Assembly (NCBI GenBank): GCA_037444485.1
Contig: JBBIMI010000008.1
Coordinates: 1 to 36,095, forward strand
DNA length: 36,095 nucleotides
Direction: 5' to 3'
Source: Candidatus Micrarchaeota archaeon
GTDB lineage: Archaea; Micrarchaeota; Micrarchaeia; Norongarragalinales; Norongarragalinaceae
Made by a program: the position numbers
Part shown: positions 30,001-33,000 of the stretch, piece after piece
Layout of the letters: the number at the start of each line of letters is the position of its first letter
Position numbering within the stretch: the first letter of the stretch is position 1

Positions 30001-33000
30001 AACAAGCGAAGCGAAACAATTACAAATATTAGGGTTGATTCGTCCCGCGACTGAACTCGCGGAATTTCTCAACCAGACATGTTTAGTTACTGTGTTTAGT
30101 TACTGGATGTACTTCTTGAGCAATTCGACAGCGCGTTTTATGCTTTGCGCAATTTGCCGTTCGCTCTTCGCGCCCGAGCATATCACCTTGCCGTTCTTGA
30201 AGAGCAAGAGAGTAGTTCCGATTTCCTTTAACCGCATTATCGCGCCCGGAAATTGTTCCGGTTCGTACTCGACGTTATTCACTTTCATCGCGATGTTGAA
30301 TAAGTCGAGTTCCACGTTCAAGTTCGCGCTCGCCACGATGTTTTCGACTTTGAAGCTCGTATTGATTTTCCTGCGAACTCCCTTCCTGGTTTTAACGATT
30401 TTTGTTCCACCCACTTCGCCGCCCACCACCTGAGAAAAAGCCGATGAACCAGCCTTTTTAATAGTTAGAGTTGTGCTTGCAAGTGTTTAAAAACCTTTAT
30501 ATATTGCTTTCAGGAACAAGTAATAGGAAGGGTAATAGGAAAAAGAGAAAAGCGCGGGGGAAGCTGGCGGCAGGAAACACAACGAATTTTTTCTTGCACT
30601 AATTCTCTCAGTCTACAAAAAGAGGAGAAAAGGGGTTTAGAGGCATGAAAAAATCTCACGGCGGTTATTCGAGCAGAAGCAGGCTGTTGAAAGCAAAGTC
30701 GCGCTTGAGCGCAGCAAGACACTTGCAAGAGTTTAAGGAAGGCGAACGCGTGCGCATAGACGTTAACCCTAGTTTTCTGCACGGCAAGCCAAACACGCTT
30801 CGCTTTAACCGCAGGGTAGCCCGCGTAGTGCGTAAGCAGGGAAGCGCTTACGTAATCGAATTGAATGACTTGGGCAAGAAAAAACAACTTGTTCTTTCAA
30901 ACATTCACTTAAAAAAACTTTGATTCAACTGGTTAAACAACGACGGCATTAAAACCGTTAGAGGTGTTTTAAGGCGTGAAAGTTATTTCTGAAAAAAATG
31001 TTTCACTGCGCGAAGCGCTTTCACTCTTGGAAAAAAGAAAGAAGGATGGCGAGCTTGGTTACGAACAACAAAACACGCTGGACTACCTGCAAGAGTTTGC
31101 TGCCCTCAACGAGAAAGACTCTAATGCGCTTGAAAAAGAACTCTGCGGGTTAGGTTTGACTGAAGAGCAAGCAATTTCTATAACAAACATCATGCCTAAA
31201 AAAGAGGAAGAAGTGCGCGCGGTTCTCGCCGGAAACAAAACCATTACTCTAGAACTCGTGAAAAACATCCTCAAAACCGTTAAGAAGTACAAGCCAGAAA
31301 AAAATAGGGAATAAACTCAAGCACTCAAGCAAACCCGAAAAAACAAAAAACAACAAAAAACAAAAACAAAAACAAAAACAAAAAAACAAAAATTTGGGGG
31401 GAAAGGAAGAAATTTGTTTGAAGAAAATTTAGGAAAAACAGTGTTGGTGTATAAAAATGTTTCAACGCGAGGAATACGCGATAGTCTTAGACTTTCTACC
31501 GCACGGCAAGGCAGGCGAAGCAGCCCGCGAGCCGGTAGCGCAATTGATAGGCGAAAACAAGTTCACTCTTCTTGAAGCCATCCCAAAGCCGGACGTGAAG
31601 TTAGAGGTCGGCGAACGCGTTTACATTGGGCGCGGCGTGCGCGATAAAATCGGGCGAATTCGCGGGCGAATCAACTTCAGCGATTTGACTAGCGCGGCGC
31701 AGAATGAAGCCAAACGCGCCATAAAACAATTAATCAAGGAACGTGAAGCGTTTTTCGTGGACTTCTTCAACAAAGCTGGACCCATAAACATTCGTGCGCA
31801 CACGCTTGAACACATTCCTTCAGTAGGCAAGAAACACTTGCAAGCAATTCTCGACGCGCGAAAACAAAAACCCTTCGAATCCTTTAAAGACATTCAAACG
31901 CGAGTGCCACACTTGCAGAAAATAGACGAGCTTTTGCTTGAACGAATTCTGCACGAGCTTACAGGCCACGCTAAGCATTACTTGTTCACGAAACCGCCTT
32001 CCAGACACTATGAAGAATAGGAGGAAACCGGGCGAAAAAAAAAGCGAAAAGGCGAAAGCTTATTTTCAAGAGCAAGCCGAGCAAGGCGTTAAGCCAAGTT
32101 TTTCTCGTAGACCGCGAGTTCGTGGAAAAAACAGCGGACGCGCTGCCACTTAAAGGCAAGACCGTGCTTGAAATAGGTGCTGGCACTGGAGTGCTTACGA
32201 GCGCGCTCGCGCGCAGAGCAAAACGCGTCATCGCGCTCGAAATCGACTCGCGGCTGCGCGAACAACTCTTGAAGCGGACTGCAGAGTTCAAGAACGTTGA
32301 AGTGAACTTCGTCGACGCGCGAAAATTCGATTTCGCTGGTTTCAAAACTATTTTCGGCAACCTTCCATACCATGCGAGCACGCCCCTCTTGTTAAAGATT
32401 CTGGAAAGCGATTTCGAGGAAGCCGTCTTATGCCTGCAGAAGGAATTCGCGGAACGCCTGGTCGCGCAGCCGGGCTCACGCGACTGGTCGCGGTTAAGCG
32501 TTGCAGCGCAGGCGAACGCCGACGTCAAAATCCTCTTTGAAATTCCGCGCTTTGCTTTCACGCCCGTCCCGAAAGTCGACAGTGCAGTCGTGTTTTTAAA
32601 GAAAAACAAGAAATTCGAGCTTGACGCAACACTCGTGAACGCGTTGTTCCAACACAAGAACCAGACAGTCAAAAACGCTTTGCTTCACTCGACGCGCGCG
32701 CTGGGTTTGAAAAAAAAAGCGCTGCTTGCTGCGCTGGAGAAAATTGGGAAGGAAAAAGAAAAGAAAGTTAGGATGCTCACGCTTGGAGAACTGACCGAGT
32801 TGACCAGCCGCTTCAAGAACAGCCGGCCACGCTGATTGTCCGCGTTTCGGAAACTCCGGCATTGCCTGCAGCGTCGGCAGCGTACACCTTGTAGGAATAG
32901 CTTGTCACGCTGCAGTTTGCCGCAATCGTCTCGCTTTCTTCAAAGTTCATTCCGGTTCCAGTCATAGTCTTATTAAAGCCGTTCCACTCAAGCGTTGCTG

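Follow-up and report, generated by a model that had tools for sequence, protein, structure and literature searches.

The window analysed here, 36,095 nt of contig JBBIMI010000008.1 of a Candidatus Micrarchaeota archaeon, carries the only TBP gene of its genome, and this gene encodes a single TBP repeat. We propose that its product probably serves as a homodimeric general TBP, and that this condition probably arose by secondary reversion. The homodimer reading is supported by the conjunction of a sole copy, its position at the TBP locus, purifying selection on the gene, the retained TBP motifs, the presence of TFB and TFE-alpha, and a dimer model.

The protein matches the TBP family (PF00352) in a single stretch (residues 25-107, 99.2 bits, E 1.2e-28, cut-off 22.9), and both this curated cut-off and its fold place it in that family. 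The stop codon falls two codons past the domain, and the two-repeat arrangement of canonical TBP is absent (Table 1). Orthologues begin with MAKK...K(I/V)N. The 366-nt spacer downstream of the gene gave no match in an Rfam search and no fold signal (z -0.83). The same short gene was recovered in a 90% identity cluster of ten members (91-109 aa) that come from four sources. A close relative, which belongs to the cluster of a sequence with 92% identity to the window protein, has been deposited as a "hypothetical protein".

Table 1. Features of the TBP locus in the window.
Feature	Position	Strand	Remarks
Single-repeat TBP gene	30100..30429	(-)	TAA stop 30100-30102; 109 aa from GTG 30427-30429
Second in-frame GTG of the TBP gene	30412-30414	(-)	Alternative start, giving 104 aa
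One TBP repeat, Pfam PF00352	30109..30357	(-)	Profile positions 1-85 of 85; topology in the model S1-H1-S2-S3-S4-S5-H2
Basic N-terminal tail, short, K/R-rich	30358..30429	(-)	pLDDT <50 at residues 7-13 (model)
Strand S1 region (FKVENIVASANL), residues 17-34 (104-aa numbering)	30313..30366	(-)	Predicted core of the homodimer interface, dyad Ile26:Ile26
Stirrup motif Y-E-P-E-Q-F-P-G-A	30241..30267	(-)	Contains the first conserved Phe
Candidate TATA-like box TATTAAAAA	30455..30463	(-)	26-34 nt upstream of GTG 30429; putative
L21e	30645-30923	(+)	Pfam; divergent from TBP
Rpo4/RpoF	30976-31314	(+)	Pfam
DUF655	31457-32020	(+)	Pfam
KsgA/RrnaAD	32122-32835	(+)	Pfam
Divergent neighbour block marking the TBP locus	30645..32835	(+)	L21e-RpoF-DUF655-KsgA

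The genome is a MAG of 961,727 b in 58 contigs, 95.07% complete. A six-frame TBP search at E<=10 returned one match, the window gene. An HMM built from 90 Micrarchaeota repeats, including the second-gene sequences of two-gene families, was run unfiltered on the 12,498 stop-to-stop frames of at least 40 aa; it gave one hit (2.2e-46) and no second TBP repeat among these frames, the next best E being 0.82. No full-length TBP was found in this genome or in the order, with either the standard or the Micrarchaeota profiles. The N-terminal domain of RNase HIII (PF11858, DUF3378) also has a single-copy TBP-like fold, according to Brindefalk et al. (2013, PMC3597702). However, the window gene, which is the only match to PF11858 in the genome, reaches 12.6 bits against a cut-off of 27 and encodes no RNase H domain. 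The claim of the genome-wide survey's note that the sole TBP gene holds one repeat is thus borne out by the full-length Pfam match, by the single match in six frames and by the Micrarchaeota HMM.

The same holds across the order Norongarragalinales, as the note had also claimed. Among 68 genomes, a TBP match at E<=10 is present in 62 and lies above the cut-off in 61, and all above-cut-off matches are of one repeat each, in open frames of 93-182 aa. The Micrarchaeota-specific profile likewise identified 61 of the 68 genomes, with 62 strong matches (E<=3.2e-45) and three weak ones (E 0.057-0.146), and no credible second repeat emerged from these genomes under the two profiles. The single-repeat genes lie inside contigs of up to 1.3 Mb, and two genomes in records titled Norongarragalinales have one TBP match each. 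Two details of the note have to be corrected. Matches below the cut-off are not limited to genomes G001 and G004, since the order has 14 such rows; none of the four that we inspected was accepted as a second repeat: a TrmB-like regulator accounts for one, a 283-aa protein from a contig of 2.8 kb for another, and the remaining two fall in non-coding frames. Moreover, the second single-repeat gene attributed to G041 is probably a bin contamination: its contig matches one of the G042 contigs at 100% identity along 2,429 nt and runs collinear to the first locus of G041, and the gene therefore looks like that of a co-binned sister strain rather than a paralogue.

Of the seven order genomes without a TBP, six were checked, and most of these lack the TBP locus as such. 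G029 and G040 have no match to the RpoF or DUF655 proteins of the window either, the locus is cut by a contig end in G026 and G061, and G067 has only a marginal DUF655 match (E 1.7e-4). Against the general pattern, in G051 (94% complete) L21e-RpoF-DUF655 are present without a TBP in the 640 nt upstream, where the contig starts.

The single-repeat gene occupies the orthologous position of the fused two-repeat TBP of its relatives. In 28 of 29 other loci of the order, TBP and L21e-RpoF-DUF655-KsgA are transcribed divergently, and fused TBPs lie at the identical locus in 10 of 10 sampled relatives; where Micrarchaeota carry a pair of single-repeat genes, one gene of each pair is found there too. 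The gene is under strong purifying selection. Median identity to the window protein is 83% for TBP (68-91; n=29), against 46% for L21e, 41% for RpoF and 57% for DUF655, and the median dN/dS of TBP is 0.099 (maximum 0.200), calculated for those pairs in which dS is not saturated (65 of 406).

In solved TBP-DNA complexes, the DNA-contact motifs are Asn and Val of S1, two Phe per repeat, and GAK, and the Y-E-P-E stirrup of the C repeat is of the TFB/TFIIB-binding type. The window protein retains N-I-V of S1, both Phe, G-K and xGAK, so that at the sequence level the conserved DNA-contact motifs of canonical TBP are in place. N25, I26 and V27 do not vary across 41 single-repeat proteins, and the Asn and Val of S1, both Phe and the stretch YEPEQFPGA are unvaried in all 51 Micrarchaeota repeats. 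The stirrup of the window protein, YEPEQFPG, appears to be of the TFB-binding type: its first Glu is typical of C repeats, where E occurs in 27 of 36 canonical cases compared with 7 of 36 canonical N repeats, and it is present in 6 of 6 long (eukaryote-size) C repeats. As for partners, the genome has one TFB gene with two cyclin repeats, and TFE-alpha is also encoded.

In 590 upstream regions, with gene starts taken from our own crude calls, TATA-like A/T hexamers peak 25-30 nt before the start codon (73 and 84 per 3-nt bin, the other 24 bins of the scan holding 16-52). At this distance TTTTTTAA, TTTTTAAA and TTTTAAAA are 3-4x enriched, and A/T boxes such as TTTTTAAA, TTTATAAA and TTTAAATA precede most of 26 TBP orthologues of the order. 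The strict 8-mer TTTTAAAA with at most one mismatch is barely position-enriched (44 versus 28-35 in four control windows), and a de novo EM motif search of the upstream regions did not converge on a positioned motif. The enriched box is polar (TTTTTTAA 21 versus TTAAAAAA 11), and because it has polarity it has no bearing for or against a symmetric reader. These promoter data support TATA-type promoters only.

The fold of the protein is that of TBP. Its monomer model has a pLDDT of 82.2, and TBPs account for every one of its 44 fold matches in the PDB at E<=0.001 (TM 0.65-0.73, normalised by query), the best being 2z8u_A (rmsd 0.9 A, 76 columns). Canonical archaeal TBPs from Pyrococcus woesei (1ais, 1pcz), Sulfolobus acidocaldarius (1mp9) and Methanocaldococcus jannaschii (2z8u) share both family and fold with it, at rmsd 0.9-1.6 A over 76-80 columns, and each half of 1mp9, 2z8u and 1ais can be aligned with the entire window protein (52-71 bits per repeat). 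The difference lies in the number of repeats: canonical TBP has two in about 180-200 aa, whereas the window protein has one in 104-109 aa.

Modelled as a homodimer, the protein scores 0.73, against 0.00 for the best of three controls, and at least 91% of contacts are common to the three runs, with a partner pLDDT of at least 84. Among 30 proteins solved as one-chain pairs, 20 attain the mark used for dimers, against 1 among 23 solved single chains, counts that apply only roughly because our own alignment was used. The modelled interface is symmetric, with contacts at residues 17-34 in both copies and the pairs 26:26, 25:25 and 23:27, and the S1 strands run antiparallel about the 26:26 dyad, as in the canonical saddle. 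This dyad is a pseudo-dyad in canonical TBP and would be exact in the window protein. The dimer score may reflect that the model has learned the intramolecular pseudo-dimer of solved TBPs, in which case it would speak for likeness and not for binding. With a modelled dimer that reproduces the canonical dyad and passes its controls, the suggestion of the note that the sole TBP works as a homodimer gains support at the level of prediction.

An alternative reading, which we consider unlikely, is that the protein is no saddle-forming general factor and acts as a monomer or in an accessory DNA-binding role, initiation proceeding without the canonical TBP saddle. The dimer is a predicted one, and precedents exist. 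Brindefalk et al. (2013, PMC3597702) describe free-standing proteins that contain a single TBP domain and are about 82-136 aa long, namely those of Thermococcales and TbpA of Halobacterium; TbpA is reported to be non-essential, and its halobacterial homologues resemble the TBPs of the same species. However, that paper tabulates the Thermococcales proteins next to a full-length TBP, from which they have diverged strongly, whereas the window protein is the sole TBP in its genome and order, lies near the family consensus (99 bits), sits at the TBP locus and keeps the TBP motifs, in a genome that has TFB and TATA-like boxes at the usual distance. The view of the note that monopartite proteins had been known only beside a full-length TBP fits the passages on these proteins in the same paper (PMC3597702), and our literature search found no paper on a sole single-repeat TBP.

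A heterodimer, in which the single repeat would pair with a hidden TBP-fold partner too diverged for sequence profiles, seems to us quite improbable. Two-chain TBPs do exist in the phylum, as family f13 and part of family f14 carry two different single-repeat genes, one at the TBP locus and one elsewhere, and very remote folds escape sequence methods. However, these second-type genes are readily detected where present (75-85 bits to the window protein), and the profile that includes them finds no partner in the window's own genome and, beyond the known repeats, yields three noise hits in the 68 genomes of the order. The confident and symmetric homodimer model also argues against such a partner.

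The phylum offers a perspective on how the single repeat arose. All Micrarchaeota repeats form one clade (UFBoot 100 / SH-aLRT 99), inside which the fused TBPs of the phylum nest, and the fused and two-gene TBPs of other families share its signature residues (FPG-A, and F-K-N-G-K in place of the S-S found in most canonical repeats). These other families have two repeats, fused or at distant loci, whereas Norongarragalinales have one. The fused proteins, with frames of 187-223 aa and repeats that are 54-74% identical in protein, thus appear as later re-duplications within the clade. Chromosome CP058998.1 (titled complete) carries three separate genes of one repeat each and lacks a fused gene, and there is one match each in G103 and G107, two genomes of family f14 that consist of a single contig. 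A canonical fused TBP in genome G195 was rejected as a Micrarchaeota gene, its sequence being the same as that of a protein named Nitrososphaerota TBP, which indicates bin contamination. We infer the direction of evolution, and the single-repeat state would have been inherited from the ancestor shared by the sampled Micrarchaeota.

The Micrarchaeota clade has no supported affinity to either the N or the C repeats of canonical TBPs (53/0), in a tree of 98 columns, too few to decide between a reversion and a pre-duplication origin. Its N-minus-C HMM score of +0.1 bits is neutral, given that held-out canonical repeats score +7.7 (N) and -11.4 (C), a crude profile leans N, and an N-type S1 residue is combined with a C-type stirrup residue; by these measures the window repeat seems neither clearly N-type nor C-type. 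A chimeric origin, with an N-type first part and a C-type second part, was rejected: quarter-wise log-odds of the order's repeats (+8.8, -6.4, +1.9, +3.1) give no clean switch point, and other Micrarchaeota single repeats are N-leaning throughout.

The note had left two origins side by side, a relic from before the duplication and a reversion. In the first, the Micrarchaeota repeat would descend directly from a pre-duplication homodimeric TBP, the N/C duplication never having been fixed and the fused forms having arisen later and independently. The clade without a supported N/C placement, the equal N and C scores and the mixed residues keep such a descent compatible with the data. However, proteins of archaeal and of eukaryotic size alike already show distinct N and C types, so that the duplication must be very old and Micrarchaeota would have to branch below it; we regard this origin as very improbable. 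The reversion is favoured: most likely, a canonical TBP secondarily lost one of its repeats, which left the single-repeat state.

Hardly any weight falls on an assembly artefact, in which a second repeat or a full-length TBP would lie in the unassembled 5% or near-identical tandem repeats would have been collapsed: although the genome is a 58-contig MAG and 7 of the 68 order genomes are without any TBP, one repeat is seen in 61 of 61 matching order genomes, in large contigs, in G103 and G107, in the single-repeat genes of CP058998.1 and in the ten cluster members from four sources, and repeats as different as those of the fused relatives would not be expected to collapse.

In a homodimeric general TBP, the S1 strands of two protein copies would pair around an axis of exact two-fold symmetry, and this pairing would restore the ten-stranded saddle that the fused repeats form in ordinary TBP. 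The homodimer would then bind the A/T-rich promoter box. Each subunit would bring an identical C-type stirrup, making TFB docking possible on either side, and the flanking BRE, read by TFB, would fix promoter polarity, as it does elsewhere in archaea, where promoter orientation depends on BRE and TFB according to a review (PMC7289017). In evolutionary terms, one repeat would have been lost from a canonical TBP, and several families would have re-duplicated the remaining one later, as a tandem fusion in some and as two dispersed genes in others.

TBP is a textbook case of the presumed duplication and fusion of a homodimeric ancestor. To our knowledge, all characterised cellular TBPs have two fused repeats. 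A single repeat as the only TBP would therefore provide a natural test of the idea of a symmetric-dimer origin. It raises the questions of whether a true two-fold saddle binds and bends promoter DNA, of how TFB picks a side when the stirrups are identical, and of what benefit lies in re-fusing the repeats, a step taken repeatedly in sister families. There is a consequence for annotation as well, since surveys that score the mere presence of TBP would miss the difference between single-repeat and two-repeat proteins.

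The TBP gene begins with a GTG codon, an alternative GTG at 30414 giving a product of 104 aa, and its stop codon lies 2 codons past the end of the TBP domain. A Pfam scan assigns to the 109-aa protein one TBP repeat (residues 25-107, profile 1-85/85; 99.2 bits, the cut-off being 22.9) and no other domain, in agreement with the genome-wide survey's note that this gene (g00481) encodes one repeat only. In the 366 nt downstream, we could not find any TBP-like frame, convincing ORF, Rfam family or unusual fold (z -0.83). The 90% cluster of the protein contains ten members of 91-109 aa from ENA, Logan, NCBI and JGI; because members from four sources are equally short, the short gene is no quirk of the window's assembly. 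A close relative, from the cluster of a sequence that is 92% identical to the window protein, is deposited as a "hypothetical protein".

Features of the window at and next to the TBP gene
Feature	Position	Strand	Basis
Ribosomal protein L40e	28665-28823	+	25 bits
tRNA-Leu, anticodon TAA	28932-29014	+	
SLT lytic transglycosylase protein, 213 aa	29092-29733	-	SLT domain, 68.5 bits
G+C-rich spacer between SLT and TBP genes, 366 nt	29734-30099		Rfam, fold and ORF checks
TBP ORF, 109 aa from GTG	30100-30429	-	reading frame

The monomer model (pLDDT 82.2) has the topology S1-H1-S2-S3-S4-S5-H2, and a PDB fold search with it returned 44 matches at E<=0.001, all of them TBPs. The top matches, 2z8u (M. 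jannaschii) and 1mp9 (S. acidocaldarius), superpose over 76-80 columns at an rmsd of 0.9-1.2 A. TM is ~0.7 when normalised by the query and ~0.4 by the target, hence the model spans half of a TBP. Judged by sequence alignment, the protein resembles either repeat of solved TBPs from end to end (71.4 and 60.3 bits for 1mp9, 63.8 and 65.5 for 2z8u, 52.1 and 70.3 for 1ais).

The same note held this gene to be the only TBP of its genome (961,727 b in 58 contigs, 95.07% complete), and this observation is confirmed. A six-frame search with the Pfam TBP model gave 1 match at E<=10. Neither did a second repeat emerge with an HMM of 90 Micrarchaeota repeats (single genes, both fused halves, and both genes of two-gene lineages), run with speed filters off on all 12,498 stop-to-stop frames of at least 40 aa: it gave one hit (2.2e-46), the runner-up having an E of 0.82. 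PF11858, which models the TBP-like domain of RNase HIII, hits the TBP gene alone (12.6 bits).

The single repeat is also order-wide, as had been claimed. Among the 68 Norongarragalinales genomes, 61 have a TBP match over the cut-off, always a lone repeat whose open frame measures 93-182 aa. A profile of 41 single-repeat proteins retrieves the same 61 genomes: 62 matches are strong (E<=3.2e-45), three others are noise (E 0.057-0.146), and the gap between them is empty. Of the 14 rows below the cut-off, four were inspected, none being a TBP. A single-repeat match occurs once in each of two genomes titled Candidatus Norongarragalinales. Only one genome of the order, G041, has two strong matches, which the note had taken for two single-repeat genes; the matches stand, but the second lies on a 4.8-kb contig (L086, G041:C80) that is collinear with the first TBP locus of G041 and shares 2,429 nt at 100% identity with a contig of G042 (L022, G042:C52), a different bin of the same genus. 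The simplest reading of these sequences is that the second gene probably belongs to a co-binned sister strain. Of the seven genomes with no match over the cut-off, six were examined (all but G052). The window's RpoF and DUF655 proteins are likewise without a match in G029 and G040, the TBP locus is truncated by a contig end in G026 and G061, and G067 has a marginal DUF655 match alone (E 1.7e-4). G051 (94% complete, 4% contamination) is the only one of the six whose TBP absence goes with neither a missing nor a cut locus: L21e-RpoF-DUF655 is present (L080, G051:C29:1-2746), and the 640 nt upstream, back to the contig start, contain no TBP.

In a wider tally, which includes one unpublished genome (G094), 148 of 151 genomes have a TBP match; no conclusion here depends on G094. 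A canonical two-repeat TBP of 185 aa in a Micrarchaeota bin (L031, G195:C43:1506-4751) is identical to a Nitrososphaerota-named TBP and was rejected as bin contamination. The chromosome of Ca. Fermentimicrarchaeum limneticum (CP058998.1, titled complete) carries no fused TBP gene but three separate genes with a single repeat each. On a 2.8-kb contig of G001 (L085, G001:C98:96-944, minus strand), a 283-aa protein resembles TBP weakly in a part of its C-terminal region (18.9 bits, ...VKIFQKGKINVLGCVCKEHAEK...); it may be a remote TBP-fold protein belonging to a mobile element.

The TBP gene is divergent from L21e, Rpo4/RpoF, DUF655 and KsgA, an arrangement kept in 28 of 29 other loci of the order. 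As the fused two-repeat TBPs of 10/10 sampled relatives occupy the same chromosomal place, we consider this to be the TBP locus. Orthologues in the order have a median identity of 83% to the window protein (68-91, n=29), the medians of the neighbours being 46% (L21e), 41% (RpoF) and 57% (DUF655), and their dN/dS has a median of 0.099 and a maximum of 0.200 over the 65 of 406 pairs with unsaturated dS. Directly downstream, the SLT protein has a hydrophobic N-terminus. An enzyme that cuts peptidoglycan is not expected in an archaeon, and the gene may be a bacterial acquisition.

In a careful tree of 78 repeats and 98 columns, all 36 Micrarchaeota repeats group together (UFBoot 100/SH-aLRT 99), whether they are singles (of the order or from elsewhere), either gene of a two-gene lineage or either half of a fused gene. 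The order's single repeats cluster at 100/95, and in a quick tree with 135 rows a group of 51 repeats receives SH-aLRT 99. The halves of fused TBPs are nested within the Micrarchaeota group: the two halves pair as sisters (96/91) in families f16, f18 and f25, and the N halves of f19 and f21 fall among the C halves. Identity between halves is 54-74% in the fused TBPs of the phylum; across the 36 canonical proteins used it is 32-51%. Of the 120 closest relatives listed, 117 have two-repeat size, and 109 of these carry FPG-A and F-K-N-G-K in each half; in 72 canonical repeats these residues turn up 6 times and once. Nesting, identity and clade residues thus indicate that the two-repeat TBPs of the phylum either stem from re-duplication of a single repeat or owe their likeness to homogenising conversion. 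The single-repeat state is old within the phylum.

Further repeat arrangements were observed. Families f13 and f14 have, off the TBP locus, single-repeat genes of a second type (IKIQNIVVSADLH..., AVIILFKNGK; L060, L063, L075, L077), which make up a separate clade (100/99); these lineages also retain the locus copy, and the two genes may make a natural two-chain TBP. In the 50% representative library, P0122, P0128 and P0150 (376, 702 and 329 aa) have four TBP repeats, a complete two-repeat unit being duplicated almost exactly in P0122, and P0125 (272 aa) has three. In P0176 (182 aa, Micrarchaeota-type), a second repeat begins normally before all likeness is lost; either the read is frameshifted or this repeat is decaying. 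Two-repeat proteins with Micrarchaeota signature residues in both halves come from records labelled Diapherotrites (P0290, P0358, P0367), and the genome of L172, titled Iainarchaeum, has a two-repeat TBP in a 279-aa frame; either these labels are loose, or the repeat type reaches beyond Micrarchaeota.

Concerning its origin, the survey's note had proposed a pre-duplication TBP or a reversion to it. The placement of the Micrarchaeota clade relative to canonical repeats has hardly any support (53/0). N/C HMMs that score 33/36 held-out canonical N repeats positive and 34/36 C repeats negative are neutral on the order's repeat (mean -0.3 bits; window protein +0.1), a cruder profile leans N, and the residues are mixed, with an N-type Glu in S1 and a C-type Glu in the stirrup. 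Since the N and C types are already distinct in archaea-size and eukaryote-size proteins, the sequences favour reversion: secondary loss of one repeat in the phylum ancestor would be more likely than a never-duplicated relic. A monopartite TBP ancestor figures as one scenario in the accessible part of Brindefalk et al., 2013 (PMC3597702).

How a lone repeat might function is suggested by its residues and by modelling. The canonical conserved residues are all retained (S1 Asn and Val, both Phe, G-K, GAK) and the stirrup Y-E-P-E-Q-F-P-G-A is invariant in 51/51 Micrarchaeota repeats; we take these positions to be the DNA-contact and TFB-contact sites of solved TBP complexes. A two-copy prediction scored 0.73 versus 0.00 for the best of 3 controls, with at least 91% contact agreement over three runs and a partner pLDDT of at least 84; the calibration, in which 20/30 solved one-chain pairs and 1/23 solved single chains reach the mark, is only rough here, the input being an in-house alignment. 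The predicted interface is symmetric, with residues 17-34 (strand S1) antiparallel (contacts 26:26, 25:25, 23:27), flanked by residues 77-79 and helix H2 packing. Because this modelled geometry matches the pseudo-dyad of canonical TBP, the result may stem from the model's memory of solved TBPs, and the predicted dimer speaks for likeness rather than for binding. A fully symmetric TBP would be mechanistically tolerable in archaea, where the TFB-BRE contact fixes the orientation of the TBP-TFB-DNA complex, according to the accessible part of a review (PMC7289017). We consider it rather probable that the sole repeat acts as a homodimer, a reading backed by every computation made.

The genome also encodes TFE-alpha and, in a single gene, a TFB with two cyclin repeats. 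In 590 upstream regions, with start codons from crude in-house calls, TATA-like A/T hexamers are most frequent at 25-30 nt upstream (73 and 84 per 3-nt bin versus 16-52 in the other 24 bins), TTTTTTAA, TTTTTAAA and TTTTAAAA being enriched 3-4 times there. For the TBP gene itself, a candidate box, TATTAAAAA, lies 26-34 nt ahead of its GTG at 30429; similar boxes precede most of 26 orthologues examined.

Single-domain TBPs described earlier appear accessory, as the note had held: in the accessible part of one study, those of Thermococcales are tabulated beside a full-length TBP from which they strongly diverge, and Halobacterium TbpA is non-essential (PMC3597702). In that of a DPANN comparative paper, TBP is merely scored as present (PMC8407392). 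A full-text literature search, with most subscription journals outside its coverage, returned no description of a sole single-repeat TBP. The sole single-repeat TBP represents a new architecture of a known transcription factor and is of high interest.
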